64,000 bases of DNA from Actinomycetota bacterium (lineage in GTDB: Bacteria; Actinomycetota; CALGFH01). The position numbers were made by a program, and so were the translations under genes. Below the pieces are notes generated by a model. It did no database searches. It had not been told where the DNA came from and saw only the letters and a program-made list of their open reading frames with translations. The stretch's first letter is position 1, and each line of letters opens with the position of its first letter. Shown piece after piece: positions 5,770 to 29,290 of the stretch. The stretch is taken from contig DATLQA010000272.1 in assembly GCA_035535495.1 (NCBI GenBank), positions 15,452 through 79,451 of the forward strand, in the 5' to 3' direction.

Positions 5770-5787
5770 CGTGAGCGGGTCGCCCTC

Positions 5788-9954: not shown

Positions 9955-10205
9955 GGGTGGTGTTCCTTTCCCGGGCCTGGCCGCTGCGGTGCGTCCGCCC
10001 GGTGACTCGTGACCGACAAAGAAAGCTGCCCAGTGGCCCGCGCGGCGGCCGCCGTCCACCGCGGACGGCCAGCCGGCGGTACGGTCCTCGGCTAGGGTAC
10101 GGAGCACGGCCGATCGCTCCACGAGCCTCACGCCGTATCCCGGCCACGTTGCTTGCAGGGTGTTCGCCCCTCCGTCCGAGGTACTGAGTGGACCGCGCCC
10201 GCCGG

Positions 10206-13690: not shown

Positions 13691-15063
13691 GCCCCCCTTT
13701 TCTCAGCGACGAGCCCGGCGCGGGCGTCCGCGGTGGCCGCTGCCGCGGCCACCGGCCGGGCCTGCGGCCGGTCGGTCAGTTCGATCTCCTGCCCGCCCGG
13801 ATCGGGCAGGCCGAGGAGGTGCCGGTAGGTCCGGTCGATCAGCTCGCACATCAGCGCCGGGTCGAACAGCGTCCGCACCAGCACACGTCCCTGGCCGCCC
13901 ATGCGCCGCCCCTCCTCGGGGTGGTCGAGCAGCCAGGTGACGCTCTCGGCCAGCGCGCCGGGATCGCCCGGCGGCGCCAGCAGCCCGGTCGAGCCGGGCA
14001 CGACCAGGTCGGGCACGCCGTTGACGGCGGTGGCGACCACGGGACGGCCCGAACCGAGGGCCTCGGTCAGGGCGCGGCCGAGCCCCTCGTACAGCGAGGA
14101 GATGACGAACACGTCGAACGCGGTGGCGAGCACGGGCGCGTCGGCCCTGAAGCCGACCAGCGCCACCTCGACGCCGAGGCGCTCGGCCTCGGCCCGGACC
14201 TCGTCGGCCATCGGCCCGTCGCCCACCATCACGAAGCGGACCGCCGGGCGGGCGGCCGCGACCCGTGCAGCCATCCGCACGAAGTCGAGCGGGGCCTTCT
14301 GGAAGTCGAGCCGGCCGACCGTGCCGACCAGCCGGGTCCCGGCAGGCAGGCCGAGCTCCTTGCGGAGCCGCGGGTCGGGCCGGTCGGGGAGCTGGTCGAG
14401 CTCGACCGCGGACGGCACCACCGTGACCGACCCTGGCGGTGCCAGCCGCATGGCCACCGCCTCGCTCGCGACCCGCGGCGAGACCGCCAGGAAGGCGTGG
14501 GTGAACCGCCGGACCAGGCGCTCGAGGGTGAGGTAGAGGCGGCGCCGCCACGCCGGCATGTAGTCGTGGTAGCTGAAGCCGTGGTAGGTGTGGACGACCA
14601 GGGGCACGCGGGTCAGCCAGGCGGCCAGCCGGCCGAGGAAGCCGCCCTTGGCCGAGTGGGTGTGCACCACCGTGAACCGCTCTCGGCGCAGCAGCCGCAC
14701 CAGCTGCCAGAGCACGGACAGGTCGTCGAAGGGGGAGAGGACCTCGCGGAAGCGGCGCAGCTTGACGGTCCGGAGACCCGCCCGCTCGGCCCGCTCCCAC
14801 AGCGGCCCGCCGTCGGCCCCGGCGACCCAGACGTCGTAGCGGTCCGGGGCGGCGCCGAGCGCCGACAGCAGCGTGTTGCCGCCGGCGCCGGCCCAGAAGC
14901 GGGTGATCACGTGGAGCACCTTGATGCGGGGCAGGTCCGGCTGGGGAGGCAGCGCCTCGGGCGGCACCACCGGCGGCAGCGCCACCGGCCAGCCGAGGCT
15001 GGCACCGTCGGCGTCGGGGCGGGCGGCAGGGGTGTCCAGGGTGCTGCGGCGGCGGGTTCGCAT
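13687..15063 (-). CDS. Glycosyltransferase family 4
   Basis: KVLHVITR, VHTHSAKGG, VGRLDFQKAP, FVISSLYEGLGRALTEA. Confidence 0.93.
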   Translation of the reverse strand: MRTRRRSTLDTPAARPDADGASLGWPVALPPVVPPEALPPQPDLPRIKVLHVITRFWAGAGGNTLLSALGAAPDRYDVWVAGADGGPLWERAERAGLRTVKLRRFREVLSPFDDLSVLWQLVRLLRRERFTVVHTHSAKGGFLGRLAAWLTRVPLVVHTYHGFSYHDYMPAWRRRLYLTLERLVRRFTHAFLAVSPRVASEAVAMRLAPPGSVTVVPSAVELDQLPDRPDPRLRKELGLPAGTRLVGTVGRLDFQKAPLDFVRMAARVAAARPAVRFVMVGDGPMADEVRAEAERLGVEVALVGFRADAPVLATAFDVFVISSLYEGLGRALTEALGSGRPVVATAVNGVPDLVVPGSTGLLAPPGDPGALAESVTWLLDHPEEGRRMGGQGRVLVRTLFDPALMCELIDRTYRHLLGLPDPGGQEIELTDRPQARPVAAAAATADARAGLVAEKRGA

Positions 15064-15183: not shown

Positions 15184-16686
15184 TCAGAACCCGTCCGGGT
15201 AGGGGGCGGTGGATGCCGGGCCGGCGCTCTCCGGCGCGGCGTTGTACTCGGGAACCAGCTTGGCCAGCAGGCTGCGGCACTCGTCCATGTCGTTGGCCTG
15301 CGCGCCCTCCTCCAGGCTGGCGAGCAGGGTGAAGAAGTCGTTGTCGAGCGTCTTGGAGGCGGCCGTGGCCCAGACCTTCGGGTGGCCGGTGGCCACGCGC
15401 TGCTCGCCCTCGCTGAACAGCGTCTCGTTGAGCTTCTCGCCCGGCCGCAGGCCGGTGTAGCGGATGGTGAGGTCGCCAGGGTCGACGTGGATCTGCGCGG
15501 CGTAGTTGTGGACCAGGTCCACGATGCGCACCGGCTCGCCCATCTCCAGCACGAACACCTCGCCCGCCCGGGCCATGCCGGCGGCCTCGACGACCAGCCC
15601 GACCGCCTCCTCGACGGTCATGAAGAAGCGGGTCACGTCCGGGTGGGTGACGGTGACGTCCTCGCCGCTCTCGATCTGCTCGGACAGCACCGACAGCAGC
15701 GAGCCGCGGCTGCCGAGCACGTTGCCGAAGCGGACCGAGGCCATGCGGGTGGCCCCGCCGCCCTGGTGCGCCTGGACGATCATCTCGGCGACGCGCTTGG
15801 TCACGCCGAGCACCGAGGTCGGGTCGGCCGCCTTGTCGGTGGAGATCAGGATGAAGCGCTCGGCCTCGTGCGCGACCGCCGCCCGCACCAGGTTCAGCGT
15901 GCCGAGCACGTTCGACTTCACGCCTTCGCACGGGTGCCGTTCGAGCAGCGGCAGGTGCTTGTGGGCGGCGGCGTGGAAGACCACCTGTGGCCGGAGGTCG
16001 CGGAAGATCTGGCCGATGCGGCCCTGGTCGCGGATGTCGGCGATCAACAGCTCGTCGGAGTCGAGCAGCGCCTCGCCCTGGATCTGGAGTTGCAGCCGGT
16101 GCAGGTTGGACTCGTCGTGGTCGAGCAGGTACAGCGCCTCGGGGTCGAAGGCGGCGATCTGCCGGCACAGCTCGCTGCCGATGGAGCCGCCGGCACCGGT
16201 GACCAGGACCCGCTTGCCCGCCACCGTCGCACGGGAGCCGCGCCGGACCACCTGCACCTCGTCCCGCCCGAGCAGGCGGTCGACCCGCAGGCGGCGGAGG
16301 TCGGAGATGCGGGCGTCGCGCTCGAGCGCCGCGCCGAACGAGGGCAGGTAGCGCACTGCCAGCCCGGCGGCGGCCGCGTCCACCGCCAGGCGGCGGATCT
16401 CGCGCGGCCGCAGCGAGGGGATCGCCACGATCACCACCTCGACCTGGTGCCGCTCGGCGACCGCGGACAGGTCGCGGGTGGTGCCGAAGACCTGCAGCCC
16501 GGCGATGCGGCGGCGCACCTTGGCCGGGCTGTCGTCCAGGAAGCCGACCGGCACCAGCCCGAATTCCGGCGTGCGGAGCAGGTCCCTCGCCAGCGACCTG
16601 CCGGCCTCACCCGCGCCGATGACCAGGCAGTGGAGCCCGTTGCCCTCGCGCCGCCGGGGTGGTCGCCGGTCGAACAATTCGATCAC
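15184..16686 (-). CDS. Nucleoside-diphosphate sugar 4,6-dehydratase (CapD/PglF/WbpM-like), without N-terminal membrane domain
   Basis: LVIGAGEAG, VLVTGAGGSIGSEL, HAAAHKHLP, ISTDKAADP, RFGNVLGSRGS, RPGEKLNETL. Confidence 0.92.
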   Translation of the reverse strand: MIELFDRRPPRRREGNGLHCLVIGAGEAGRSLARDLLRTPEFGLVPVGFLDDSPAKVRRRIAGLQVFGTTRDLSAVAERHQVEVVIVAIPSLRPREIRRLAVDAAAAGLAVRYLPSFGAALERDARISDLRRLRVDRLLGRDEVQVVRRGSRATVAGKRVLVTGAGGSIGSELCRQIAAFDPEALYLLDHDESNLHRLQLQIQGEALLDSDELLIADIRDQGRIGQIFRDLRPQVVFHAAAHKHLPLLERHPCEGVKSNVLGTLNLVRAAVAHEAERFILISTDKAADPTSVLGVTKRVAEMIVQAHQGGGATRMASVRFGNVLGSRGSLLSVLSEQIESGEDVTVTHPDVTRFFMTVEEAVGLVVEAAGMARAGEVFVLEMGEPVRIVDLVHNYAAQIHVDPGDLTIRYTGLRPGEKLNETLFSEGEQRVATGHPKVWATAASKTLDNDFFTLLASLEEGAQANDMDECRSLLAKLVPEYNAAPESAGPASTAPYPDGF

Positions 16687-17939
16687 TGGGTCATCCCCCC
16701 GCCGCCGGCCGACCTCGTGCCCAGGTCGGCGATGGCCTCGCAGACGCGGTCGACGTCGCCGTCGGCCAGGCGGGGGTAGAGCGGCAGCGAGAGGATCTCT
16801 GAGAAGACGGTGTCGGCCACCGGGAAGCCTCCCGTCAGTGCCTCGGCCCAGCGCTCCTGGAACCAGGGCTGGTGGTGGAGCGGGATGAAGTGCACCGAGC
16901 AGTCGATCCCGCGCCGTGCCAGCTCGGCGATCAGCCCGTCGCGCCCGAGACCGTGCTCGGGGCCGACGCGGATCACGTACAGGTGCCAGGCGTGCCGGCC
17001 CTGCTCCGGCACCGGCCGCCAGGGAGCGGCCACGCCGGGCACCTCGGCGAGCTGCTTGTCGTAGCGCTCGGCGAGCTCGCCGCGGCGCTCCTGCCAGGCT
17101 CCCAGGTGGCGGAGGTGGGCCCGGCCGATGGCGGCCTGGACATCGGTCAGGTTGGCCTTGAGCCCGTCCAGTTCGACGCGGTAGCGCCAGTTCGCCCCCG
17201 GCAGGTAGCGCTTCCAGGCGTCGCGGCTCATGCCGTGCAGGCGTGCCGTCCGTGCCCAGTCCGCCAGGCCGCTGTCGGCGGTGGTGAGCATGCCGCCCTC
17301 GCCGATCGGCAGGTTCTTGGTGGCGTAGAAGCTGAAGCAGGTGGCCGCCGAGATGGTTCCCACCTGCTGCTCGCCGACCCAGCCGCCGACGGCGTGGGCG
17401 GCGTCCTCCACCACCCTGTCCAACGGCAGCCCGGCGGCCGCGGCGAGCTCCGCGACCGGAGCGGGCGCGCCGGCGAAGTGCAGCACCAGCATGGCGTCGA
17501 CGCCGCCGGCCCTGGCGGCCGCCGCCGCGGTCTCGGCCGGGCCGGGCATCAGGGTCTCGGGGTCGACGTCGGCGAACACCGGCTGGTGGCCGGCGTGGGT
17601 GATGGCGTGGACGGCGCCGCAGAAGGTCATCACCGAGGTGAGCACCTTGGACCCCGGCGGCAGGCGGAGGCCGCGGAGGGCCAGCTCGATGGCTGCCGTG
17701 CAGGAGGAGACCGCCACCGCGTCGGGCGCCCCGACCCAGTCGGCGAACTCCCGCTCGAACGCGACCACCTCAGGGCCGGTGGTCACCCAGCCAGAAGCGA
17801 GCACGCGCGCGGCGGCCTCCCGGGCGTCGGGAGTGATCTCCGCGGCGGCGAAGGGGATGCGCGGGAGGTCGTCAGCCCCGGTCTGGCCAGCCTCTCCGTG
17901 CGCCTCCGCCCCGGCGTCGGTCGCGCCGCGCTGTGCCAT
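16683..17939 (-). CDS. DegT/DnrJ/EryC1/StrS family PLP sugar aminotransferase
   Basis: VSSCTAAI, EDAAHA, FSFYATKNLPIGEGGM, HAWHLY, VHFIPLH. Confidence 0.93.
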   Translation of the reverse strand: MAQRGATDAGAEAHGEAGQTGADDLPRIPFAAAEITPDAREAAARVLASGWVTTGPEVVAFEREFADWVGAPDAVAVSSCTAAIELALRGLRLPPGSKVLTSVMTFCGAVHAITHAGHQPVFADVDPETLMPGPAETAAAAARAGGVDAMLVLHFAGAPAPVAELAAAAGLPLDRVVEDAAHAVGGWVGEQQVGTISAATCFSFYATKNLPIGEGGMLTTADSGLADWARTARLHGMSRDAWKRYLPGANWRYRVELDGLKANLTDVQAAIGRAHLRHLGAWQERRGELAERYDKQLAEVPGVAAPWRPVPEQGRHAWHLYVIRVGPEHGLGRDGLIAELARRGIDCSVHFIPLHHQPWFQERWAEALTGGFPVADTVFSEILSLPLYPRLADGDVDRVCEAIADLGTRSAGGGGMTQ

Positions 17940-18221
17940 CTGACCCCCACGAGATTTGGGACACTGCTTCAGCTGCGCCTACGCTGCCAGCGTGTGGGAG
18001 AGAACTGATCCGCCAGGGGGAGGAACCCCGGTACGCCATTCGGAGGAGTTGGCGGTCGACGCCTCGGCGGCCCCCGCGGCAACCACGCAGGTCAGCGGCC
18101 TCGTCTGGACAGGCCGAATTGGTCCCCGGAGGATCTGAGCAAGATTCCCTACGACGAATGCTGGTGGGGCCAGAGCAGAGCCAGCGGCAATCCGGGATGA
18201 AATTGGGGGAAGTGGTGCAGC

Positions 18222-18905
18222 ATGGAGCCGAGCCGCGGGCGGCAGGTGCTCGCCGCCGTCAGCGTCGCCGCCGTCCTGGTGGCGGTCGTCGCCGTGGTGG
18301 TGGCGGTGGCCGTGGTCAACGCCGACCGGCTCCGGGGCGGCCAGGAGCGATCCGAGGTGCGCCGCTTCACCGCCAGCATGCGCCAGCCCATGGGCGACCT
18401 GGCGGCGCTGGCCGACGGCGGGCTCGACGGCCAGCCCGGCTTCTCCGCCGCCAGGCAGCTGCTCGGCCGCCAGCCGGACGGCGGGGTGCTCGACCGCCAG
18501 GCGGTCGCGTGGGAGGACCAGCTCCGTCAGACCGGCTTCGAGGTCGGGAAGGTCAGCGTCGGGCCTGGCGAGCTGTTCTCGCCGGGCACCGGGCGGCAGC
18601 GCAACTCGGTCGGCGGGCGGGTCCGGTCGCTCAGCTCCGTCCGTGACAACTACGAGGCGGCCGTCGGCCTGTACATCGCCACCGCGCACTTGTGGCGGCT
18701 CGCCGCGGCCGCGCCACGCGGCGGTGAGCTGCGCGCCAGCCTGATCTTCGAGGCGGTCGCCATGCAGGAGCGCGGCCAGGTCGCCCTGAACACCGCCGCC
18801 ATGGAGCTGCTCCAGCTCCACGACCGGTACCGCCTCGACGTGCGCCAGCGCATGCCGGGCGAGTCGGTCCTGTCCTACCGCAACCGCTACCGCGACGCGC
18901 CCTGA
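18222..18905 (+). CDS. Hypothetical membrane-anchored protein
   Basis: Single N-terminal TM (VLAAVSVAAVLVAVVAVVVAVAVV) then a helical domain; coding-like frame; no motif recognised. Confidence 0.55.
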   Translation: MEPSRGRQVLAAVSVAAVLVAVVAVVVAVAVVNADRLRGGQERSEVRRFTASMRQPMGDLAALADGGLDGQPGFSAARQLLGRQPDGGVLDRQAVAWEDQLRQTGFEVGKVSVGPGELFSPGTGRQRNSVGGRVRSLSSVRDNYEAAVGLYIATAHLWRLAAAAPRGGELRASLIFEAVAMQERGQVALNTAAMELLQLHDRYRLDVRQRMPGESVLSYRNRYRDAP

Positions 18906-19735
18906 GTCCGGGTCCGGCCCGGATGTGGCGCGGCGGTCAGCAGCCAGGTGCGGGCGCTGGCCAGGGCGGCGATCAGGTAGGCCACCGGGCGCAGCGGCAC
19001 CGGGAACGGCAGCTCGCGGGCGGCACGCCAGCGCAGGGCGATCACCCCGGCGCCACGGCGGCGGCGGTCGGTGCCGGCGGCGAAGAACTGGCCGGGATGG
19101 ACGCGCTTGACCGCCAGCGGGGTGTCCAGGTTGGCCAGGCGCCAGCGGGCGGCGAGGCGCAGCAGGGCGTCGTTGTCGATGCCGCTGCTCACGGCCGGGT
19201 CGAAGCCGCCGATGTCGGCCAGCGCGGCGGCCCGGTAGGTGACCGAGCTGTGGAACATCGGGTTGCGCACCAGGAAGGCGAGCCGGATGGCGGCGTCGCT
19301 GCGGGGCAGCCGGCGGGTGGCGCGCCGGCCGGTCGCTCCGAGCAGGGGCTGGACGGCCGAGCCGACCGCGCCGACACGCGGGTTGGCGTCCAGGAAGCGC
19401 ACCGGTAGCGCCAGACGTCCGGGCAGGGCGAGGTCGTCGGCGTCCAGCACCGCCAGGTACCGGCCACGGGCCAGGGCCACGGCGTGGTTGAGCGCGGCCA
19501 CCCGGCCCTGGTGGGCGAGGCGGACCAGGCGCAGCCGGGGGTCCGGACGGCCGGCGACGGCGGCGGCGCTGCCATCGGTCGAGCCGTCGTCGACCACCAG
19601 CAGCTCGAAGTCGCGGTAGTCCTGCGCCAGCAGGCTGTCGACCGCGTCCTGGACGAAGGGGCGGTGGTTGAACACGGTCATGACCACGCTGACCGCTGGC
19701 GCGGGGCGGGCGGTGGCCGGGTCAGGTGGCGGCAC
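18887..19735 (-). CDS. Glycosyltransferase family 2
   Basis: VSVVMTVFNHRPFV, VVDDGSTDGS, LDADD, NPMFHSSV; GTG start overlaps the upstream stop. Confidence 0.9.
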   Translation of the reverse strand: MPPPDPATARPAPAVSVVMTVFNHRPFVQDAVDSLLAQDYRDFELLVVDDGSTDGSAAAVAGRPDPRLRLVRLAHQGRVAALNHAVALARGRYLAVLDADDLALPGRLALPVRFLDANPRVGAVGSAVQPLLGATGRRATRRLPRSDAAIRLAFLVRNPMFHSSVTYRAAALADIGGFDPAVSSGIDNDALLRLAARWRLANLDTPLAVKRVHPGQFFAAGTDRRRRGAGVIALRWRAARELPFPVPLRPVAYLIAALASARTWLLTAAPHPGRTRTQGASR

Positions 19736-21098
19736 CGGTGGGCTCCCGCCGGCTCGGCGGCACCGGCGCCGCAGCCTCCTGGTCGGCCGGCTCGGCGGCG
19801 GCCTCGGCCTGGTGGGCGGCCACACAGACCAGCGCGAACAGCATCCACATGTGGCGGAAGTGGTAGGTCTCGTGGGCCAGGCCGAAGATCAGGTTGGCCC
19901 AGACGGCGCCGGCCAGGGCACGGTGGGTGGCGCGGCCGCTTCCCCCGGCCACCAGCAGCCGCCCGCTCCAGCGCACCAGGATCAGGCAGAACGCGAGGTA
20001 GGCGACCAGGCCGAGCACGCCGCGCTCGATGGTCACGCTGAGGTAGTCGTTGTGCGTGCTGGAGCGCGCCACGCCCTTGGGGTTGAGCAGGTTCAGGCTG
20101 ACGAACTGGCCCGGCCCGATGCCGAGCGCCACGTGCGGGGAGGCCGCTTCCCAGGTCTGCCGCCAGATCTCGAGCCGGTCCTCCAGACCGCGGTCGGTGC
20201 GGCCGAGGGTGCTGCCGAGCGGGCTGCCCTGGCGCTCGTCGCTGAACACCCGGAAGGGGCTGGGGCGGCCAGCCTGCCACTCGATCAGCGCCCCGCTCCC
20301 GACCACCAGCAGCACGACCAGCAGCAGCAGGGCGCCGACCAGGCCCTGCATCTGCTCGCGGGTGCGGCCGCGGCGGAACAGGGCGCCGATCCCGAGCACG
20401 GCCAGGCCGATCAGGAGCCCGGAGATGCCGCCGTTGGAGCCGGTCAGCCAGATTCCCCACAGCAGCCACCCGGCGGCCAGCAGGCGCAGCGGCCTGGCGC
20501 GGGGCCACGGCGAGGCGAGCAGCACGAAGAACGAGGTCACCAGGTAGCTGCCGAGCAGGTTGGGATTGCCGCTGGTGCCGGCCGGACGGGACCCCTGGAC
20601 GCCGACGACCGGCAGCTCCTGCGGCAGCACGTGGACGGCGACCAGGATGGGAAGGCAGGTCCACGCGAGCGCGGCCAGCACCCAGACGACCAGGATGCGG
20701 TCCAGGCCCCTCCGGTCGTCGGCCAGGTCGTTGGACACGCCGAAGAACAGCAGGATCAGGTAGATCTCGATCAACAGGGTGAGGATGCCGAGGCCGACGT
20801 CCTCGGAGGCGAGGGTGGCGATCACCCCGGCGGCGAGGAACAGCAGCAGGGCCGGCCCGGCGGGGCGCACCAGCCTCCGGCCGGTGCGGGGGAGCGCGAC
20901 CATCGCGACCAGCAGGTAGACGATCGCCAGGGCGTCGACCGGCGCGGTGTTGCCCGGCCCCTTCGGCACCAGCAGCGGCAGCGCCGCGACCGCCAGCCCG
21001 AGGACGAACAGGTGCAGGTGGCCGGCGCGGAAGCTGAACAGCGCCCGGATCCGGCCGGTGGCGGGACGCTCGGCGGGCGGCGGCGAGCTGCGGCGCAT
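19722..21098 (-). CDS. O-antigen ligase/Wzy polymerase family membrane protein
   Basis: Multi-TM; GTSGNPNLLG, LTGSNGG, RLEIW...LGIGPG, HNDYL, RHMW. Confidence 0.85.
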   Translation of the reverse strand: MRRSSPPPAERPATGRIRALFSFRAGHLHLFVLGLAVAALPLLVPKGPGNTAPVDALAIVYLLVAMVALPRTGRRLVRPAGPALLLFLAAGVIATLASEDVGLGILTLLIEIYLILLFFGVSNDLADDRRGLDRILVVWVLAALAWTCLPILVAVHVLPQELPVVGVQGSRPAGTSGNPNLLGSYLVTSFFVLLASPWPRARPLRLLAAGWLLWGIWLTGSNGGISGLLIGLAVLGIGALFRRGRTREQMQGLVGALLLLVVLLVVGSGALIEWQAGRPSPFRVFSDERQGSPLGSTLGRTDRGLEDRLEIWRQTWEAASPHVALGIGPGQFVSLNLLNPKGVARSSTHNDYLSVTIERGVLGLVAYLAFCLILVRWSGRLLVAGGSGRATHRALAGAVWANLIFGLAHETYHFRHMWMLFALVCVAAHQAEAAAEPADQEAAAPVPPSRREPTGAAT

Positions 21099-22069
21099 CA
21101 GACTCCCGTCTTGGCCGCCGACCTCTGGCGGCGGGCGATCCATGCTGCCTCGCTGGCGATCCCGTCGGCAAGGTCGACTTCGGGCCGGTAGCCGAGCAGG
21201 GCCTCCGCCCGGGTGCCGTCGGCGCCGGTGTGGCGGGCGTCGCCCGCCTGGGCCGGCTGGTGCACCACCCGCAGGCGCCGGCCGGTGGCGCGCCCGACCA
21301 GGTCGAGGACCTCGTCGAGGGTGACCCGGCGTCCACCCCCGACGTTGACCACCTCGCCGGCTGGCGCGGCCATCGCCAGCAGGTTGGCCCTGACCACGTC
21401 GGCGACGTGGGTGAAGTCGCGGGTCTGCTGACCGTCGCCGTAGACGGTGATCGGCGCGCGGGCGTAGGCCGCCTCCAGGAAGCGACGGAAACCCATGTCA
21501 GGGCGTTGCCTCGGCCAGTAGACGGTGAAGTAGCGCAGGGTGGTCACGGTCAGGTCGCTCACCGCCGGCTGCGCGTACGCCAGGCAGAGGTGCTCACTGG
21601 CCAGCTTGGTGACGCCGTAGGGGGAGACCGGGCGGGTGGCGGAGCTCTCGGTGGTGGGGTAGGTGGGCGCGTCGCCGTACACGCTGGAGGAGGACGCGGC
21701 CACCAGGTGGGGCACGCCCACGCGCGTGCAGGCCTCAAGGAGCCGCTGCGTGGCGATGATGTTGTGGCGCACGTAGAGGCCGAAATCGGCGCCCCAGGAG
21801 TGGCGCACCCCGGGCTGCGCGGCCTGGTGGAACACCACCGCCGCGCCGTCCAGGAGGTCGTCGAGGTGCAGCTCGCCGAGGTCGCCGTCGACCAGCTCGA
21901 AGCTGGGGTGGCCGGCCAGCTCGGCCAGGTTGGCGCGCTTCTCGGCGGGAGCGTAGTAGGGCGTGAAGGCGTCGATCCCGACCACCTCGTGGCCGGCCGC
22001 GACCAGCCCTTCGGCCAGGTGCGAGCCGATGAAGCCGGCCGCGCCGGTGACCACCACGTGGCCGTTCAC
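21098..22069 (-). CDS. NAD-dependent UDP-sugar epimerase (GalE/UDP-glucuronate 4-epimerase-like)
   Basis: VVTGAAGFIGSHL, HQAAQPGVR, SSSSVYG, YGVTK, LRYFTVY, RDFTHVAD. Confidence 0.9.
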   Translation of the reverse strand: MNGHVVVTGAAGFIGSHLAEGLVAAGHEVVGIDAFTPYYAPAEKRANLAELAGHPSFELVDGDLGELHLDDLLDGAAVVFHQAAQPGVRHSWGADFGLYVRHNIIATQRLLEACTRVGVPHLVAASSSSVYGDAPTYPTTESSATRPVSPYGVTKLASEHLCLAYAQPAVSDLTVTTLRYFTVYWPRQRPDMGFRRFLEAAYARAPITVYGDGQQTRDFTHVADVVRANLLAMAAPAGEVVNVGGGRRVTLDEVLDLVGRATGRRLRVVHQPAQAGDARHTGADGTRAEALLGYRPEVDLADGIASEAAWIARRQRSAAKTGV

Positions 22070-22980
22070 CGGGCCTCGCCGTCCAGCCGCGCGCGCAGCT
22101 CCACCAGGGCGTCGGCAGGGACGGCGACGTTGCCGCCGGCGCCCCGGCCGAGGGCGATGCCCGGCTTGTGGCTGCCGTGGTAGTCCGATCCGCCGGTGAC
22201 CAGCAGCCCGCGGCGCTCCGCCTGCCCGGCCCAGCGGCGCTGCTCGTCGCGGTCGTGCTGCGGGTGCCAGGCCTCGAGGCCGTCGGCCCCGGCCTCGAGG
22301 CACGCCGCCAGCACCCGGTCGCGGGTGATCGCGGGCAGCCGTCCGGGGTGGGCCACCACCGCCACCCCGCCGGCGGCGTGGACCAGGCGCACCGCCTCGG
22401 CCACCGGCAGCGACGGGGCCGGCACGTAGGCCGGGCGGCCAGGGCCGAGCCAGCGCTCGAAGGCGTCGGCCACGTCGGCCACCACACCGTTGGCGACCAG
22501 CGCCCTGGCGAAGTGGGCGCGGGACACCGCCGCCTCGCCGGCCAGCGCCGCGGCGTCGTCGTAACCGACCCCGGTGAGCACCCTCAGCCGCCGGCCGATG
22601 GCCCGGTTGCGCCCGCCCCTGCCGGCCCGGACGGCCGCGCAGCGGACCTCGATGCCGGCCGCCGCCAGCCCGCTGCCGTAGGCCAGCAGGTGGACCACCT
22701 CGCCTTCGGCCTCGGTGGTGAGCTCGCAGCCGGTCAGCACCTCGACGCCGAGCCGGCGCCCCAGGCTGCCGGCCGACTCGACCGACGCCAGGGTGTCGTG
22801 GTCGGTGACGGCGAGCACGCCGACGCCGGCCCTGGCCGCCGCGGCGACCAGCGCCTCGGGCGTGTCGCTGCCGTCCGAGGCGTGGGTGTGGCAGTGCAGG
22901 TCCACCAGCGGCGCCCTGGTGGGCCGGTGGCGCGCGGCCTGCTCCACCCAGGCGGTGGCGAACCCGGCCGGCATCGGCAT
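22066..22980 (-). CDS. PHP-domain phosphoesterase (TrpH/YciV-like; candidate PAP phosphatase)
   Basis: DLHCHTHASDG, VTDHDT, GCEL, VHLLAY, AHP, GGSDYHG. Confidence 0.88.
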   Translation of the reverse strand: MPMPAGFATAWVEQAARHRPTRAPLVDLHCHTHASDGSDTPEALVAAAARAGVGVLAVTDHDTLASVESAGSLGRRLGVEVLTGCELTTEAEGEVVHLLAYGSGLAAAGIEVRCAAVRAGRGGRNRAIGRRLRVLTGVGYDDAAALAGEAAVSRAHFARALVANGVVADVADAFERWLGPGRPAYVPAPSLPVAEAVRLVHAAGGVAVVAHPGRLPAITRDRVLAACLEAGADGLEAWHPQHDRDEQRRWAGQAERRGLLVTGGSDYHGSHKPGIALGRGAGGNVAVPADALVELRARLDGEAR

Positions 22981-22984
22981 GGCG

Positions 22985-23596
22985 TCAGCCGAGCGCGTCG
23001 AGTCGCGCGGCAATCTCGTCCTCCTCGATGGCGATGTAGAGGTCGCCAGGCTTGGTCAGCCCGAGCCGCTCCAGCGTGTCGATGACCTGCTCGGCCGAGC
23101 GCTCCACCGGCTCCCGATCGGTGTGCGCCACCAGCTCCGGGTCCTCCGGGGCCTCGTACGGATCGGAGACGCCGGTGAAGTTGGCGATCTCGCCGGCGAT
23201 CGCCTTGGCGTAGAGGCCCTTCGGGTCCCGCTCGGCGCAGGTCTCCAGCGGCGCGTCGACGAACACCTCGACGAAGTTCGGCACGGCGGCGCGGACCTTG
23301 GCGCGCGCCTCCCGGTAGGGCGAGATCGCGGCCACCACCACCGCCACGCCGTGCTTGGCGAGCTTGCCCGCCACGTAGCCGATGCGGGCGATGTTGGTGT
23401 CGCGGTCGGCCCGGCTGAAGCCGAGACCCTGGCACAGGTTGGTGCGGACCTCGTCGCCGTCGAGCAGCTCGACCCGGTGGCCACGGTCGGCGAGCGCGAC
23501 CGTGACGGTGCGGGCGAGGGTCGACTTGCCCGCACCGGAGAGGCCGGTGAGCCAGAGCACGAAGCCCGGTGAGTCGGACCAGGACTGTCCCGTCAT
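22985..23596 (-). CDS. cysC: Adenylyl-sulfate kinase
   Basis: [51 protein letters not shown]. Confidence 0.96.
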
Positions 23597-24786
23597 GCCA
23601 GTGCCTTTCCGTTCCGCCCGTTGGTGCCTTCCTGGTAGGCCTCGGTGAGCACCGCCGCCACCTCGGGGCGGGAGAACTCCGGCGGGGGCAGCTCGCCGGC
23701 GACCAGCATGGCCCGCACCTGCGTGCCCGACAGGCTCACGTGCGCGTCACCCGGGTGCGGGCAGGTCTTGGCGGTGGCCATGGCGCCGCAGGTACGGCAG
23801 AAGAAGGCGTTGTCGAACAGCAGCGGGGTGATGCCGAGCTCCTCGGGGGGGAGCGAGGCGATCAGCTCCTGCGCCTCGTAGGTGCCGTAGTAGGCGCCGA
23901 CGCCGGCGTGGTCCCGCCCGACGATGAAATGGGTGCAGCCGTGGTTCTTGCGGACCAGCGCATGCAGCACCGCCTCCCGCGGTCCCGCGTAGCGCATCGG
24001 CGCCACCAGGGCGGCCAGCACCACCCGCTCGGCCGGGAAGTACGACAGCACCGCCTCGTAGGCGCGCAGCCGCACCTCGACCGGGACGTCACCTTCCTTG
24101 GTCGGGCCGACCAGGGGGTGGAGGAGCAGCCCGTCGCACACCTCCAGGGCGCACTTGAGCAGGTACTCGTGGGCACGGTGCACCGGGTTGCGGGTCTGGA
24201 ACGCGGCGATCCGGCCCCAGCCGCGCTCGGCGAAGGCTGCCCGCGTCTGGGCCGGGGTCAGCGCGTAGGAGCCCGCCGGCCCGCCGGCCGGTCCCATGAC
24301 CGCCCGCACCGGGCCGGCGACCGCTCTGGCCGGGCTTTGCAGCACCCTGGCCACCCCGGGGTGGGCCGGGTCGTCGGTGCCGTAGACGAGCTTGGCCTCG
24401 CGCTCGCGGTCGCGGTCGAAGACCTCGGTGACCTCGAGCACACCCACCAGGCGGCCCTCCGCCTCGCGCAGGGCGAGGAGGCCGCCGCGGAACTCGGCGT
24501 CGTCGGGGAGCCCGAGGCAGACCGGGATCGGCCAGATGGCGCCGTCGTCGGTGCGCATCGCCTCGGCGCAGGCCTCGTGTGCCGCCCGGCCCATGAAGCC
24601 CTCGAGCGGGCTGTAGGCCCCGGTGGCGATCGCCCGCAGGTCCGCCGCCTCGGCCGGGGTGAGCCGCAGCGCTGGCAGCCGCTCGGCCGCCTCGCGATCG
24701 TCAGGGTCCAGCCACCGCTCCACCAAGCGGCCGCCGTGGGGCCGTGCCGGCCCGCCGTTCGTTGCCGTCTCCAGCCTGATCGTCAC
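23593..24786 (-). CDS. sat: Sulfate adenylyltransferase (Sat type)
   Basis: [54 protein letters not shown]; GGAGG RBS before GTG 24786. Confidence 0.95.
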
Positions 24787-24972
24787 GTGACTTCGTCCTC
24801 CAGATCTCGCCAGGTCGAAATGGGCGGACATGACCGAGCTTATGAACCGTGCCACCGCACGCCGAGGCTCGATCGCCGTACCTGCCGCTACGGCGCGGAC
24901 AGTACGCCTTGCTTGGCCAGGTCACGGGGCGTGCCCGGGGTTCGGGGGCTCATGGAGCGAAGCGGTAGCCCC

Positions 24973-26682
24973 TTACCTGCGTTCGCCAAGCCGCTCCCTG
25001 GGTTTCGACCCGTTGGCCCCCAGATTCTGGGTGGGCTGGTGGCGCTTGCCGTCGTTGGCCTGCACCGCTTCGATCAGCCCTTTGTCGCCGTAGCCGTACC
25101 CGTAGCCGTAGCGGAGCGTGCCGAGCGGGCGGAGGCTGCGGGTCCCGACCAGGACGGCGCCGACCTCGTGGACCTGGTCGCGGCGGAAGCCCTCGGCGGC
25201 CTGCTGGATCGCCGTCCAGCGGCTGATCCCGGACCGCGCCACCAGCACGGTCCCGTCGGCCACCCCGGCGAGGGTGAGCGCGTCGGCCGAGAAGTGGGCG
25301 GGGGGCGTGTCGAGCAGCACGGTGATGTCGGTGGTGCGCAGCGTGATCAGCATCTGGCGGAGCTTGTCGGTCACCAGCAGCTCGCCGGGGTTGCGGCTGG
25401 GGTTGCCGGCGGGGAGGACCAGCAGGTTGTCCGCCACCGAGATGAACATCGACAGCACGTCGTGCCGTTCGCCCTGCAGCAGCTCGGCCAGGCCGGGCTG
25501 GCCCTGGATGCCGAGGAGCTTGTCGATCCCGGGGCGGCGCAGGTCGCTGGAGACCAGCAGCACCTGCCGTCCCTGGCGGGCCAGGGCGTGGCCGAGGTTG
25601 ACGGCGAGGGTGGACTTGCCCTCGCCGGGGTCGGCCGAGGTGATCGCGAGCACCCGGACGTCGTCGCAGAGGCCGTGGCGGAGCAGCGCGGCCGCGACCC
25701 GGCGGTAGCCCTCGGCCGCCAGGCTGAACGGCGCGTTGACCACCGGGACCCGGCCCTTGCGGATACCGGCCCGCGCGACCGTGGCCAGCACCGGCAGCTC
25801 GGTGGCCGTCTCGACGTCCTCCGGGCTGACGATCTTGGGCGTGGCCGACTCCACCATCAGGGCGATCGCGATGCCGACGAGCAGCCCGAGCAGCAGCCCG
25901 ATCACCAGCGAGGCGACCCGCCCGATGGGGGCGATCGCGGTGGTGAGAAACGGCTCGCCGAGCACGGCGGTCGAGGCGCCGAGGACGATCTGCTTCTCGC
26001 GGACCGCGCTGATCCGTCCCATCAGCGCGGTGTAGTCGTTCTGGGCGAGCTTGAGCAGGGTGGCGGTGCCGGTCTTCGGCGCGGTGCGGACCGGCCCGGC
26101 GGTGGCCTCCCTGTCCGCCTGGTCGGAGAGCTGCTGGATCCTGCGTTCCAGGGCGCGGCGCTGAAGCTCGTAGTTGGTCAGGATCGATCTGACGTGGTTG
26201 GCGTCCTCGGTGTTGCGGCGGGTCGTCCAGAGCCTGGCGTAGCTCCGCGCCACCGCCACCGCCCGGTCGCCGATGCGGTCGACGTAGACCAGGTCGACCA
26301 GGTTGGTGCCGGCGACCGGGGCGGCGCTCAAGCCCTTCAGCAGGGTGGCGGCGTCCAGGGTGCCGCGCGCCGGGCCCAGGCCGTCGAGCACCTGCTGGGC
26401 GACCGCGACGTCGTTGAGCGGGTCAGAGATGACCGCGTCCTTGGCGGGGTCGGCCACGGGGGCCTGCGCGGCGATCGCGTCCGAGGTGGTCTGCCCGACC
26501 CGCATGCGCACGGAGGCCTTCTGGGTCCCGCGGTTCGCCAGGGCGTTCGGCAGGACGGTCGTCCCGAGGGCCAGCCCGGCGCCCAGCGCGACCAGGACGA
26601 CGAGCTTCCGTCGCCAGATCGAGCGGCCGTAGTCGGCCATCGTCGGGGCGGTGCGCCGCGAGCGGTCTCGGTCAGGGGGCAT
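24973..26682 (-). CDS. Polysaccharide co-polymerase / tyrosine autokinase (Wzz-Wzc/CpsD-CapB fusion)
   Basis: Two TM segments flanking a coiled coil, AEGYRR, Walker A TSADPGEGKST, DLRRPG, LDTPP, C-terminal Tyr cluster RYGYGYGYG. Confidence 0.9.
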   Translation of the reverse strand: MPPDRDRSRRTAPTMADYGRSIWRRKLVVLVALGAGLALGTTVLPNALANRGTQKASVRMRVGQTTSDAIAAQAPVADPAKDAVISDPLNDVAVAQQVLDGLGPARGTLDAATLLKGLSAAPVAGTNLVDLVYVDRIGDRAVAVARSYARLWTTRRNTEDANHVRSILTNYELQRRALERRIQQLSDQADREATAGPVRTAPKTGTATLLKLAQNDYTALMGRISAVREKQIVLGASTAVLGEPFLTTAIAPIGRVASLVIGLLLGLLVGIAIALMVESATPKIVSPEDVETATELPVLATVARAGIRKGRVPVVNAPFSLAAEGYRRVAAALLRHGLCDDVRVLAITSADPGEGKSTLAVNLGHALARQGRQVLLVSSDLRRPGIDKLLGIQGQPGLAELLQGERHDVLSMFISVADNLLVLPAGNPSRNPGELLVTDKLRQMLITLRTTDITVLLDTPPAHFSADALTLAGVADGTVLVARSGISRWTAIQQAAEGFRRDQVHEVGAVLVGTRSLRPLGTLRYGYGYGYGDKGLIEAVQANDGKRHQPTQNLGANGSKPRERLGERR

Positions 26683-26739
26683 GTGCGCTCCAGTCGCCGG
26701 CCAGTCGGTGCCGGGATCGTGCGTTCGTCGGGTCAGGGC

Positions 26740-27393
26740 TCACGGAGTCGCGCTCAGCTCGGGCACGTACTGCATCGCGAACGTCGCCGCCTCGAGCTTC
26801 GAGTGCATGTCCAGCTTCTCCAGGATGTTCTGGATGTGGGTGCGGACGGTGTGGGGGCTGATGAACAGCTCATGCCCGATCTGCGCATTGTCCCACCCAC
26901 GGCGCAGCAGGAGGAGCACCTGCCGCTCGCGGGGCGACAGCCGGGACAGCGGCGAGTCGGCGGCGCTCTTCTGCAGCTCCACCAGGCGCTTGAACAGGGT
27001 GGGGAGCATCGCGCGGGGGACCACGCCCTCGCCGTCAAGGGCCGCCTGGATGGTGCGGAGCACGGTGCGCGCGCCGCTGGTCTTGGTCACCACCGCCGGC
27101 GCGCCGGCCCGCACGGCCGCCACCACCAGGTCGAGGCCGGCCTCCTGGGCGAGGATCACCACCTTGACGTCCGGCTGCCTGGCCAGCAGCTTCTCGACCA
27201 GGGTCGGCCGGCGATCCAGCGCCAGGCTCGCGTCGACCAGCACCAGCTCGGGGCGGAGCCGCCCGACCTGGTCGACCAGGTCCTCGGCCGACGAGGTCTG
27301 GCCCACCACCAGGTGGTCGCTCTGCTTGTCGAGCAGTGCACGGAGCGCTTCGTTGAAGAGAGGTTGACTGTCCGCGAGCAACACTCGAGCCAT
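26740..27393 (-). CDS. NarL/LuxR-family response regulator with atypical receiver
   Basis: Receiver fold (RVLLADS, LVLVDA), C-terminal LSPRERQVL...GWDNAQIGHELFISPHTVRTHIQNILEKL; GGAGG RBS. Confidence 0.9.
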   Translation of the reverse strand: MARVLLADSQPLFNEALRALLDKQSDHLVVGQTSSAEDLVDQVGRLRPELVLVDASLALDRRPTLVEKLLARQPDVKVVILAQEAGLDLVVAAVRAGAPAVVTKTSGARTVLRTIQAALDGEGVVPRAMLPTLFKRLVELQKSAADSPLSRLSPRERQVLLLLRRGWDNAQIGHELFISPHTVRTHIQNILEKLDMHSKLEAATFAMQYVPELSATP

Positions 27394-27766
27394 CCGCGTC
27401 CTCCGTCCCCGGCCCGACAGCCGTCCCGCCCGGCCGGGCGAGACGTACAGCGAGTACCAAGCGTGGGCATAGCGCCGGACAGTGCGCATACGCTCACGCA
27501 GTAGATCGGGCTACGATGAGCGAGCGATTTTCCCGCTCTGCCTGGTACATGCGCACCAGCAGGTGTTCGCGCCACCGCGCCGACCAGCGGAATCGGCGAC
27601 AATCATGCAGGTGTTGTAGGCGAAGCCCCCCCACCCGTCGATGGGCGCGATCCGCTGATGCGACCACCATCGGATGCGGTTGTCAGTCAGACGACGTTGA
27701 CGTTCGGGGGGGCATGGTGACGACAATCGGCCGGTCCTGGCACGCACCTGTCGGAGGTGCGCTGAC

Positions 27767-28567
27767 ATGAAGGTCGTGCTGTTCTGCGGCGGGCTCGGCC
27801 TGCGCATCCGGGAGCACTCCGAGCACATCCCGAAGCCGATGGTCAGGATCGGCTACCGGCCGGTCCTCTGGCACGTGATGCGCTACTACGCCCACTACGG
27901 GCACAAGGACTTCGTGGTCTGCCTCGGCTACAAGGCGGACGTGGTCAAGCGCTACTTCCTCGACTACGACGAGACCCTGTCCAACGACTTCGTCCTGTCG
28001 CAGGGCGGCGGCGACCGCCGGGTCGACCTGCTCGGCAGCGACATCGACGACTGGCGCATCACCTTCCTCGACACCGGGCTGTACGCCAAGATCGGCATGC
28101 GCCTCAAGGCGGCCCAGTCGCAGCTGGAGAACGAGGACCTGTTCCTCGCCAACTACGGCGACGTGCTCACCGACGCGCCGCTGCCCTCGCTGATCGAGGA
28201 CTTCAAGAAGCGCGACGCGGTGGCGGCGTTCATCCGCGTGCCGCCCAGCTACACCTTCCACGTCGTCGGGATGAAGGACGACCACCACGTCTCCCACATC
28301 GAGGACATCAAGACGACCGGGATCTGGCTGAACGGCGGCTACTTCATCTTCCGGCCGGAGATCTTCGACTACCTGCACGAGGGCGAGGAGCTGGTGGAGG
28401 AGCCGTTCCAGCGGCTCATCCAGGAGAACCGGCTGATCTCCTACCCGCACGAGGGCTTCTGGGCGCCGATGGACACCGTGAAGGAGCGGCAGGCCCTGGA
28501 GGCGATGTGGGAGGCCGGCGAGCCGCCCTGGGCGGTCTGGCAGGCCGGCGAGCAGGTCGGGCAGTGA
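27767..28567 (+). CDS. Second glucose-1-phosphate cytidylyltransferase-like nucleotidyltransferase
   Basis: MKVVLFCGGLGLRIRE...PKPMV, LGYK, ANYGD, WLNGGYF, FWAPMDT. Confidence 0.88.
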   Translation: MKVVLFCGGLGLRIREHSEHIPKPMVRIGYRPVLWHVMRYYAHYGHKDFVVCLGYKADVVKRYFLDYDETLSNDFVLSQGGGDRRVDLLGSDIDDWRITFLDTGLYAKIGMRLKAAQSQLENEDLFLANYGDVLTDAPLPSLIEDFKKRDAVAAFIRVPPSYTFHVVGMKDDHHVSHIEDIKTTGIWLNGGYFIFRPEIFDYLHEGEELVEEPFQRLIQENRLISYPHEGFWAPMDTVKERQALEAMWEAGEPPWAVWQAGEQVGQ

Positions 28568-29214
28568 TCCAGCTGCCGTTCCCGTCAGGCCGTGACGGGG
28601 GCCTGCGGGTGCTGGCCATCGGCGCGCACTCCGACGACATCGAGATCGGCTGTGGCGGCACCGTCCTCCGGCTGGTGGAGGACGGCCTGGCCGCGAGCGT
28701 CGGCTGGGTGGTGCTGTCCGCCGCCGGCGAGCGCGCCGAGGAGGCGCAGGCGAGCGCGGCCGCGTTCCTCAAGCAGGCGCCCGAGCACGAGGTGGTGCTG
28801 CGCGACTTCCGCGACGGCTTCCTGCCGTACTCGGGCTTCCAGGTCAAGGAGTTCTTCGAGGAGCTGAAGCGCTTCGACCCCGACGTGGTGCTCACCCACC
28901 GCCGCGACGACGTGCACCAGGACCACCGGCTGGTGGGGGAGCTGACCTGGAACACCTTCAGGAACCACCTGGTGCTCGAGTACGAGATCCCCAAGTACGA
29001 AGGGGACCTCGGCCACCCGAACCTGTTCGTGACCCTGGACCGGTCCCGCTGCGAGCGCAAGATCGAGCTGCTGATGGAGGGCTTCCGCTCCCAGCGTGAC
29101 CGCCGCTGGTTCACGGAGGACACCTTCTGGTCGCTGCTGCGCCTGCGCGGCCTGGAGTCCAACTCGCCCACCACCTACGCCGAGGCCTTCCACGCCCGCA
29201 AAGTGGTGATCTAG
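28564..29214 (+). CDS. PIG-L/LmbE family deacetylase
   Basis: AIGAHSDDIEIGCGG, DVHQDH, YEIPKY, AEAF; GTGA overlap with the upstream gene. Confidence 0.9.
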   Translation: MIQLPFPSGRDGGLRVLAIGAHSDDIEIGCGGTVLRLVEDGLAASVGWVVLSAAGERAEEAQASAAAFLKQAPEHEVVLRDFRDGFLPYSGFQVKEFFEELKRFDPDVVLTHRRDDVHQDHRLVGELTWNTFRNHLVLEYEIPKYEGDLGHPNLFVTLDRSRCERKIELLMEGFRSQRDRRWFTEDTFWSLLRLRGLESNSPTTYAEAFHARKVVI

Positions 29215-29290
29215 GCCCGGTCGGCGACGATCGTCCTCCCGGACCCAATACAGTGGTGCCGACCGGATCACCAGGGCGCGGGGAGGCGGC

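Follow-up and report, generated by a model that had tools for sequence, protein, structure and literature searches.

The DNA analyzed here is a 64-kb stretch (64,000 nucleotides of contig DATLQA010000272.1, positions 15,452 to 79,451; hereafter the window) from an uncultured soil bacterium of the Actinomycetota, in which genes for an ATP sulfurylase (sat), an adenosine 5′-phosphosulfate (APS) kinase (cysC), and a PHP-domain phosphoesterase are joined in one operon to genes for polysaccharide polymerization. This operon lies in the middle of a Wzx/Wzy-dependent heteropolysaccharide cluster of ~27 kb (938-29836). Given the ~73% G+C content of the window, most six-frame open reading frames (ORFs) are spurious, and genes were called by third-position G+C (GC3). 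Frame analysis of this kind showed the minus strand to be coding throughout 18887-24855. The operon and the features that precede it, in the order of transcription, are as follows; product 3′-phosphoadenosine 5′-phosphosulfate is abbreviated PAPS, and L088 and L097 are related loci described below.

26740-27489, minus strand: LuxR/GerE-type response regulator that opens the minus-strand cluster (Pfam GerE and Response_reg)
24973-26682, minus strand: Wzc-like polysaccharide co-polymerase fused to a tyrosine autokinase (Pfam ParA/CbiA-type P-loop)
24787-24972, minus strand: intergenic leader 5′ of sat, 186 nt (alignment of the window, L088, and L097)
23593-24786, minus strand: sat, homo-oligomeric-type ATP sulfurylase, sulfate + ATP to APS (PF14306 (PUA_2), 136 bits; PF01747, 309 bits)
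22985-23596, minus strand: cysC, APS kinase, APS to PAPS (PF01583, 206 bits)
22066-22980, minus strand: PHP-domain phosphoesterase of the TrpH/YciV/Cv1693 family (Pfam PHP)
21098-22069, minus strand: NAD-dependent sugar-nucleotide epimerase/dehydratase, Epi1 (PF01370, 182 bits)
19722-21098, minus strand: Wzy-type polymerase or O-antigen-ligase-like membrane protein (PF04932 (Wzy_C), 63.7 bits)
18887-19735, minus strand: GT2 glycosyltransferase (PF00535 (Glycos_transf_2), 98.6 bits)

The gene identities, order, and head-to-tail coupling proposed in an initial annotation of this DNA were borne out by the Pfam assignments and by the junctions read from the sequence. The sat stop and cysC start share an ATGA overlap (23593-23596), and the cysC stop (22985-22987) is separated by a 4-nt gap from the ATG of the PHP gene (22980). 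The PHP stop overlaps the GTG start of the epimerase gene (22069) as GTGA, the epimerase TGA and the wzy ATG (21098) form a TGATG junction, and wzy overlaps the GT2 gene by 14 nt, provided that the latter starts at GTG 19735. Equally tight packing was observed in the orthologous loci L088, L091, and L097. Such stop/start overlaps are common in high-GC actinomycete operons; they indicate a single operon and are nothing unusual per se. The operon does follow the gene of the Wzc-like kinase, with one difference in detail: sat begins at GTG 24786, preceded by a GGAGGA ribosome-binding site, and because 186 nt separate this start from the wzc stop, the two genes are not translationally coupled. The Wzc-like protein matched NCBIfam tyrosine autokinase models below their cut-offs, and its translation carries a C-terminal tyrosine cluster, YGYGYGYG. 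Orthologues of the LuxR-type regulator head every related locus (L088, L097, L098, and L121).

Sulfate activation enzymes and the PHP-family protein

Sat scored 474 bits against NCBIfam model NF003166 (cut-off 387) and 371 bits against TIGR00339 (cut-off 323) and is thus an ATP sulfurylase of the homo-oligomeric type. Its translation contains [13 protein letters not shown] and VGRDHAGVG, which correspond to the QTRNPxHRxH- and GRDHAG-type motifs that we take to define the ATP sulfurylase active site; both catalytic motifs are intact ([11 protein letters not shown]; GRDHAG). CysC scored 259 bits against NF002059 (cut-off 244) and 220 bits against TIGR00455 (cut-off 139) and contains the P-loop GLSGAGKST. 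Among species-representative genomes, the nearest Sat is 70% identical and is fused to CysC (L007, from an Actinomycetes metagenome-assembled genome (MAG)). The next matches, at 50-56% identity, come from Eremiobacterota, Thermoactinomyces, and others, that is, from outside the actinomycete group and from other phyla. With its further relatives so placed, this Sat does not belong to the housekeeping genes that actinomycetes widely share.

The best structural matches of the PHP protein in the PDB were 3e0f (E = 6e-41), 7ug9 (Escherichia coli RNase AM; E = 9e-37), and 2yb1 (Cv1693; E = 7.5e-36), the last being the founding 3′,5′-nucleotide bisphosphate phosphatase. The trinuclear site of RNase AM and Cv1693 comprises HxH, Asp, His, Glu, His, His, and Asp-x-His ligands together with an Arg (PMC9410882). 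Alignment to these two enzymes revealed that the PHP protein keeps every trinuclear-metal ligand and the phosphate-binding Arg, the aligned positions being His-29, His-31, Asp-36, the His of DHD, the Glu of GCE, the His of VHL, AHPGR, and SDYH. Two NCBIfam models, nside_bi_sphtase (184 bits against a cut-off of 400) and RNase RNM (183 against 375), were matched almost equally and below threshold; sequence alone therefore leaves the substrate and subfamily unsettled. Judged from these alignments, the protein is a TrpH/Cv1693-family homologue of phosphatases acting on 3′-phosphoadenosine 5′-phosphate (pAp), with an intact active site. Sulfotransferases and PAPS reductase release pAp as their by-product and are inhibited by it (PMC8268124). 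In the window, only 4 nt separate the PHP gene from cysC; its homologues at 64% identity are located between sulfotransferase genes and behind Sat-CysC in three other loci (L095, L121, and L123), and from this context we infer that the enzyme acts on pAp. As the product of a pAp phosphatase homologue is thereby included, the module would cover both PAPS supply and by-product removal.

Cv1693 and E. coli RNase AM (YciV; cog0613) share with the PHP protein the fold and the trinuclear metal site, including all ligands and the Arg, but they are only ~30-40% identical to it, and the equivalog cut-offs were missed. The known members of this type are stand-alone housekeeping genes, whereas the PHP gene of the window sits in a polysaccharide operon behind sat and cysC.

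Related loci and the wider polysaccharide cluster

Related loci fall into groups that were delimited by gene order and by identity of the PHP protein. Those with the gene order of the window, here called type A, contain the first tier of PHP homologues (79-92% identity) and comprise L088, L089, L091, and L097/L120, the last from MAG SMAG_U1911. In L088, L091, and L097/L120, and hence in at least three other lineages, the cluster is kept gene for gene at 71-91% identity, including the trio of sat, cysC, and the PHP gene. The L120 sequence indicates that conservation at this level runs from the PIG-L operon to the secreted-protein gene (both listed below), with different flanking genes beyond. 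Across type A, the trio is free of stop codons and its motifs are intact. Against the type A orthologues, Sat had ratios of nonsynonymous to synonymous substitution (dN/dS) of 0.20-0.24, CysC of 0.39-0.40, and PHP of 0.29-0.45, whereas most cluster genes fell at 0.25-0.48 and Wzy at 0.7-0.8; the values were obtained by the Nei-Gojobori method at a GC3 of ~0.95, with Epi2 left out, so that they are reliable as a ranking and not as absolute figures. In this ranking, the trio stands at or below the glycosyltransferases, over lineages separated by a dS of ~0.35-0.4. The pattern of substitution is that of purifying selection on the trio in type A.

Approximately 100 nt immediately 5′ of sat, the promoter-distal part of the leader, are conserved across species about as well as coding sequence, as seen in an alignment of window positions 24787-24900 (minus strand) with L088:8005-8118 and L097:8068-8184. 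RNAalifold detected no covariation in the leader with only three distinct sequences, and Rfam returned no match for the window at gathering thresholds or for the region upstream of sat at E ≤ 1. A scan of 17800-28000 for consensus (sigma-70) promoters and terminators found none, and no inverted repeats were present in the four intergenic regions checked. Possible functions of the leader are those of an internal promoter, a site at which a regulator binds, or an element of a 5′-untranslated region.

A second tier of PHP homologues, at ~64% identity, occurs within a LuxR-Sat-CysC-PHP module of other polysaccharide loci, referred to as types B and C (L095/L096, L098, L121/L122, and L123/L124). 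The module is 63-75% identical to that of the window overall (Sat, 73-75%; CysC, 70-73%; PHP, ~64%) and, as in the window, stands in Wzx/Wzy-type loci. Here, it is accompanied by canonical sulfotransferases of the Sulfotransfer_1/3 families: three with clear RSGST, RSGTT, and RSGTN motifs around the module in L095/L096, one at the contig end in L098, two in L121/L122, and one in L123/L124. The type B and C loci differ from the window not only in these one to three sulfotransferase genes but also in a β-propeller gene that follows PHP, in kinase-like and sulfatase-family genes, in their glycosyltransferase sets, and in that no Wzc gene separates LuxR from Sat. For one sulfotransferase family of the related loci, at least 193 relatives were confirmed. 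The best 80 of these 193 are mostly from Actinomycetota (Gaiellaceae, Intrasporangiaceae, Nocardioidaceae, Streptosporangiales, and Angustibacter) and include the cultured genera Angustibacter, Phycicoccus, Humibacillus, Ornithinimicrobium, and Segeticoccus; the loci of these 80 (L125-L204) often have further sulfotransferase, GT4, and Wzy genes nearby. Candidate sulfated-glycan loci appear widespread in Actinomycetota.

The L121 island adjoins pgsA/htrB and an EF-G-like gene, with 81% identity to its counterpart at 36284-38374 of the window. From these shared neighbors, the two islands can be placed at one chromosomal site, with different contents. When positions 1-38374 of the window were compared with L121, the island was seen in both to be bounded by the EF-G-like/pgsA/htrB anchor and by a histidine-kinase and LuxR pair; the left flank past the window edge (L087) holds only a histidine kinase and a LuxR-type regulator, that is, a two-component system. 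By gene content, its behavior is that of a polysaccharide locus that is hypervariable apart from a conserved head module. L094 provides a further arrangement, in which a type A backbone (Epi1, 71%; GT4, 71%; DegT, 66% identical) with LuxR, Wzc-like, Wzy, and lipoprotein genes carries two Phosphodiest (PF01663) genes (4154-6954) exactly in the slot of sat-cysC-PHP, followed by the Epi1 orthologue. Homologues of the secreted protein have alternating company of the same kind: a fused Sat-CysC and two sulfotransferases in L205, and Phosphodiest-, sulfatase-family, and CDP-ribitol-type genes in L206. From these comparisons, we read the trio as a putative swappable donor-supply module for polymer decoration.

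The remaining features of the cluster and its flanks are listed below in order of position.

938-2086, minus strand: secreted right-handed β-helix protein with no Pfam model for its family; the conserved cluster ends with this gene (signal peptide in translation)
2399-3532, plus strand: GT2 (Pfam; conserved in L120)
3615-4469, plus strand: glucose-1-phosphate cytidylyltransferase-like protein (Pfam; conserved in L120)
4405-5751, plus strand: NDP-hexose C-methyltransferase (Pfam; conserved in L120)
5788-7599, minus strand: AsnB-like amidotransferase without the N-terminal Cys (Pfam, NCBIfam; N terminus MPGIVG)
7628-8860, minus strand: C-methyltransferase-like protein (Pfam, NCBIfam)
8890-9957, minus strand: second epimerase (Pfam, NCBIfam)
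10206-11810, minus strand: Wzx flippase (PF01943 and PF13440)
11797-12846, minus strand: lipoprotein with a clan GH-A-like TIM barrel, of a family without a Pfam model (lipobox LAGC in translation)
12884-13690, minus strand: small polyprenyl-phosphate sugar phosphotransferase (Pfam, NCBIfam)
13687-15063, minus strand: GT4 (Pfam, NCBIfam)
15184-16686, minus strand: PglF/PseB-like UDP-GlcNAc 4,6-dehydratase (Pfam, NCBIfam)
16683-17939, minus strand: DegT aminotransferase (Pfam, NCBIfam)
18222-18905, plus strand: convergent ORF, 227-residue protein with one N-terminal transmembrane helix (GC3 0.97)
27767-29836, plus strand: divergent operon of a second glucose-1-phosphate cytidylyltransferase-like gene, a PIG-L-family deacetylase, and a GNAT (Pfam)
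30374-34065, minus strand: sulfate ATP-binding cassette (ABC) importer Sbp-CysT-CysW-CysA (NCBIfam, all four above curated cut-offs)
34189-34644, plus strand: Rrf2-family regulator, divergent from the importer operon (PF02082, 121 bits; inside a long spurious ORF)

By Pfam, the cluster therefore holds the gene set of a Wzx/Wzy-dependent pathway: Wzx, Wzy, a chain-length/kinase protein, an initiating phosphotransferase, and glycosyltransferases. The second cytidylyltransferase-like gene scored 217 bits against TIGR02623, below the cut-off; this gene and the PIG-L gene adjoin the cluster in L088 and L097 too, and the GNAT gene does so in L088 only. The window contains two cytidylyltransferase-like genes (3615-4469 and 27767-28567) and two C-methyltransferase-type genes (4405-5751 and 7628-8860), a complement that suggests a repeat unit with a CDP-linked, C-branched deoxysugar. 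In L097, an additional C-methyltransferase paralogue (49% identical) adjoins the second cytidylyltransferase-like gene. The AsnB-like protein retains the PP-loop TGGLDS and is missing the glutamine-hydrolyzing N-terminal cysteine, as is its L120 orthologue (LPGIAG); on this basis it is probably an ATP-dependent amide-forming enzyme that uses a nitrogen donor other than glutamine. In L007 (3086-14103), the fused Sat-CysC gene adjoins a 71% orthologue of the second epimerase of the window. Its neighbors encode a sulfatase-family protein, a NosD-like β-helix protein, and methyltransferase-like and aminoglycoside-kinase-like proteins, with neither a sulfotransferase nor a PHP gene found in the 15.6 kb covered at this locus.

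The convergent ORF at 18222-18905 shares 19 nt with the end of the GT2 gene. Its product had no match in Pfam or NCBIfam, and the ORF is species-specific, being found in L001-L004 and not in L088, L091, or L097. The remainder of the window is housekeeping in character (an EF-G-like gene, pgsA-htrB-pimA, pdxS, yebC, ruvC/B, yajC, secDF, apt, relA, and aspS), and window genes have exact copies on soil metagenome contigs. The PIM operon and the base composition assign the organism to the Actinomycetota.

The sulfotransferase question and competing explanations

The explanation that we favor, and to which we would give about even confidence, is that the product of the cluster is a sulfated heteropolysaccharide, located at the surface or extracellular. 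Sat would convert sulfate and ATP to APS, which CysC would phosphorylate to PAPS; while the lipid-linked repeat unit is still cytoplasmic and not yet flipped by Wzx, a sulfotransferase would then sulfate one of its sugars or else a nucleotide-sugar precursor, and the PHP-family enzyme would hydrolyze the inhibitory pAp to AMP and phosphate. The acceptor would be the polysaccharide of this cluster, and the transferase would be encoded elsewhere or be of an unrecognized type. The initial annotation had favored sulfation over assimilation from the lack of adjacent reductases. That preference gains from the pAp-phosphatase homology of the PHP protein, from the homologous module amid sulfotransferases, and from the restricted distribution of Sat, but it is weakened by the lack of a transferase in the cluster.

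Several observations weigh against sulfation of the polymer by this cluster. Pfam detected no sulfotransferase at E ≤ 0.01 among all window genes or at E ≤ 5 among those without an assigned family, and searches with six related sulfotransferases (tblastn and phmmer) against all ORFs of at least 80 residues in the six frames of the window found none. When a profile of 76 sulfotransferase sequences was compared by hhalign with 26 cluster proteins, probabilities did not exceed 0.6%, whereas divergent sulfotransferases included as positive controls reached 20-98%. In another species, the orthologous cluster (L097/L120) is likewise without a detectable sulfotransferase. By contrast, the other Sat-CysC polysaccharide loci of this actinomycete group that were read (L095, L098, L121, L123, and L205), L007 excepted, carry one to three sulfotransferases within 10 kb. 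The MAG of L097/L120, SMAG_U1911, was not among the best 80 of 193 relatives in the search of species-representative genomes with the one sulfotransferase family, a result that is uninformative rather than negative. In addition, the family of the PHP protein also contains the 5′-3′ exoribonuclease RNase AM, and the protein falls below the NCBIfam equivalog cut-offs. The cluster thus departs from sulfated-polysaccharide clusters, in which a sulfotransferase gene is present, and the missing sulfotransferase is a real anomaly for a simple sulfation reading.

A scan of the six frames of the window for the 5′-phosphosulfate-binding (5′-PSB) motif gave only antisense or chance matches. Together with the Pfam, tblastn, phmmer, and hhalign results, it upholds the original statement that the window has no canonical sulfotransferase. 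Of the two options offered for the transferase, a merely off-window location does not account for the data, given that the full cluster of L097/L120 also lacks one; an unrecognized type stands, as does action in trans. We infer that the transferase acts from elsewhere in the genome or belongs to an unrecognized family.

Three products of the cluster were considered as hidden sulfotransferases and rejected. Structure prediction, initially put forward for finding PAPS pockets among ORFs without assigned families, returned glycan-processing folds, namely a TIM barrel for the lipoprotein and a β-helix for the secreted protein. The lipoprotein (11797-12846) is ruled out by its lipobox, by its TIM-barrel model, and by distant homologues in loci without sat. 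Its AlphaFold2 model has a predicted local distance difference test score (pLDDT) of 84 and matched GH5, GH10, and GH53 enzymes in Foldseek (E ∼5e-8, TM ∼0.5), and its family of 51 members (P0121-P0171) occurs in polysaccharide loci both with and without sat. One member (P0154) is fused to, or was called together with, a Bac_transf domain. The secreted protein (938-2086) is ruled out by the location that its signal peptide implies and by its all-β fold; its AlphaFold2 model (pLDDT 83) gave weak Foldseek matches (E = 0.01-0.1), all to right-handed β-helix carbohydrate enzymes. Both proteins are unlikely transferases, since both are exported, away from cytoplasmic PAPS. The family of the secreted protein has ~99 members (P0172-P0270), of which a 52% identical homologue (L205:10001-11092) adjoins two sulfotransferases and the fused Sat-CysC. 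This placement suggests a polymer-processing role, and the protein may act on the decorated polymer as a lyase or hydrolase. Absence from L088, L091, and L097, which retain the trio, rules out the transmembrane ORF at 18222-18905.

An unrecognized transferase could also be among the conserved cytoplasmic cluster genes that carry other labels, although we regard sulfation of the type A polymer by such an enzyme as unlikely. Candidates would be the AsnB-like adenine-nucleotide α-hydrolase without the glutaminase Cys, the second methyltransferase-like protein, and a partner of the PIG-L deacetylase, which, by analogy with N-sulfation, would act on a de-N-acetylated amino sugar. Such a transferase would explain why selection has kept PAPS supply and pAp clearing in a cluster of more than 20 genes that is without a Sulfotransfer gene.

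A doubtful but appreciable possibility is that LuxR-Sat-CysC-PHP is simply the conserved end of a hypervariable island from which the variable part with the sulfotransferases has been swapped out by recombination for a different gene set. The type A polymer would then be unsulfated, and the PAPS made by the trio would serve sulfotransferases elsewhere that act on other acceptors (lipids, small molecules, or another glycan). The same anchor genes flank the island in the window and in L121 with different contents between them, the head is shared while glycosyltransferases, sulfotransferases, and accessory genes vary between types, and type A alone is without a sulfotransferase in cis, all as this account would have it. 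It fits less well with the position of the type A trio, which is not at an edge: Wzc precedes it, and the PHP gene is coupled through GTGA to epimerase-wzy-GT2, so that the trio is expressed together with polymer synthesis. The arrangement and the low dN/dS have also been kept over the type A lineages at a dS of ~0.35-0.4, and in L094 the slot of the trio holds other candidate decoration genes.

Housekeeping assimilation, in which Sat and CysC would feed a PAPS reductase encoded elsewhere, the PHP protein would clear its pAp, and the importer and Rrf2-type regulator would belong to the same regulon, is improbable. The sulfate importer reported initially at a distance of ~6 kb is genuine (TIGR00971, 219 bits against a cut-off of 156; TIGR02139, 296 against 246; TIGR02140, 335 against 329; TIGR00968, 421 against 343), the distance from the end of cysA, the closest of its genes, to the start of sat is 5.6 kb, and an Rrf2-family regulator lies beside the importer. 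Yet it forms a separate transcription unit whose divergent regulator suggests, from the gene arrangement, a sulfur-responsive control of its own, and its adjacency to the cluster was not seen in L088 or L121; because of both features, the importer is a neighbor and not a conserved part of the system. Assimilation would also account for the failure to find a sulfotransferase in cis, and sat-cysC pairs of Eremiobacterota (L008-L023) beside ABC transporter genes look assimilatory, as does the precedent of Bacillus subtilis, where sat and cysC lie within the cysH operon. Against this, no PAPS_reduct or NIR_SIR (sulfite reductase) domain was detected by Pfam in any called gene of the 64-kb window, as the initial annotation had it for adjacent genes, and the activation genes therefore do not stand beside reductases as in an assimilatory operon. 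The trio shares its operon with wzy and glycosyltransferase genes, the homologous trio is surrounded by sulfotransferases, and this type of Sat is patchy in actinomycetes, which generally activate sulfate via CysDN. Mycobacterial CysH, moreover, uses APS, making CysC dispensable for assimilation.

The PHP protein might instead be the cognate phosphotyrosine phosphatase of the Wzc-like kinase, comparable with CpsB/YwqE of Firmicutes capsule loci and unrelated to PAPS. A bacterial tyrosine (BY) kinase gene does lie three genes upstream, the cluster is without a low-molecular-weight protein tyrosine phosphatase (LMW-PTP) or other phosphatase, and CpsB-type phosphatases are PHP-fold enzymes. We consider this highly improbable nonetheless, as the sequence matches are confined to TrpH/YciV/Cv1693, a subfamily with an insertion domain. 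Among PDB structures at E ≤ 1e-3, only TrpH-type enzymes and a PolC PHP domain were matched, with no CpsB or YwqE, and the Pfam match was to generic PHP only, with no CpsB_CapC. No kinase gene adjoins the 64% homologues of L095, L121, and L123, which come after Sat-CysC or between sulfotransferases.

Relation to known systems and significance

Dedicated sulfate-activation systems that are co-located with a PAPS-consuming pathway, as in the window, are represented by NodPQ-NodH of rhizobia and RaxPQ-RaxST of Xanthomonas. Unlike the window, these systems have a CysDN-type sulfurylase, and their acceptors are a lipo-chitooligosaccharide or a peptide. To our knowledge, the NodPQ and RaxPQ modules always have a sulfotransferase alongside and include no pAp phosphatase.

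A closer counterpart is the wps-1 cluster of Actinoplanes missouriensis, described in June 2026 (Appl Environ Microbiol; PMC13390465), which is Wzx/Wzy-dependent and contains two sulfotransferases (WpsB and WpsH) and a GH26 gene. Deletion of the neighboring Sat/APS-kinase gene AMIS_7390 severely impaired the formation of sporangia, as did deletion of most wps-1 genes (PMC13390465). A sulfated polysaccharide is the authors' prediction and not yet a demonstrated product, and by their account reports of such polysaccharides in bacteria had been confined to cyanobacteria, e.g. synechan (PMC13390465; PMC8205485). Like the window, wps-1 is an actinomycete Wzx/Wzy cluster with Wzz/Wzc-type chain-length control, a glycoside-hydrolase gene, and an adjacent sulfate-activation gene. 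It differs in its two sulfotransferases, in the Sat/APS-kinase gene being a separately regulated neighbor, and in that no pAp phosphatase is reported; the window, by contrast, has separate sat and cysC genes coupled with a PHP-type phosphatase in the polymerization operon and no detected sulfotransferase. The xss cluster of Synechocystis, which makes synechan (eLife 2021; PMC8205485), is likewise a bacterial Wzx/Wzy-type cluster, but it is cyanobacterial, includes its sulfotransferases, and has had sulfation shown experimentally. The rarity in Actinomycetota claimed in the initial annotation is tempered by the 193 relatives of one sulfotransferase family, mostly from Actinomycetota among the best 80, and by the Actinoplanes prediction (PMC13390465).

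Sulfated polysaccharides are well known from animals and algae, and the general idea of actinomycete sulfated polysaccharide clusters is no longer new. What is new is the conserved regulator-Sat-CysC-PHP cassette, the context that it gives to the PHP phosphatase, and a conserved variant that has the donor cycle and no recognizable transferase. The regulator/ATP sulfurylase/APS kinase/PHP cassette recurs in soil actinomycetes, attached to polysaccharide gene sets that vary and that in most cases include canonical sulfotransferases, and it supplies a physiological context for a PHP-family pAp phosphatase. Where the donor cycle occurs without a transferase, either sulfotransferases act in trans on a Wzy-pathway polymer or an unrecognized sulfotransferase family exists. 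The Phosphodiest or sulfatase-family genes in the same slot suggest that anionic decorations may be interchangeable, sulfate being one of several. The cassette offers a genomic signature for finding sulfated glycans in Actinomycetota.

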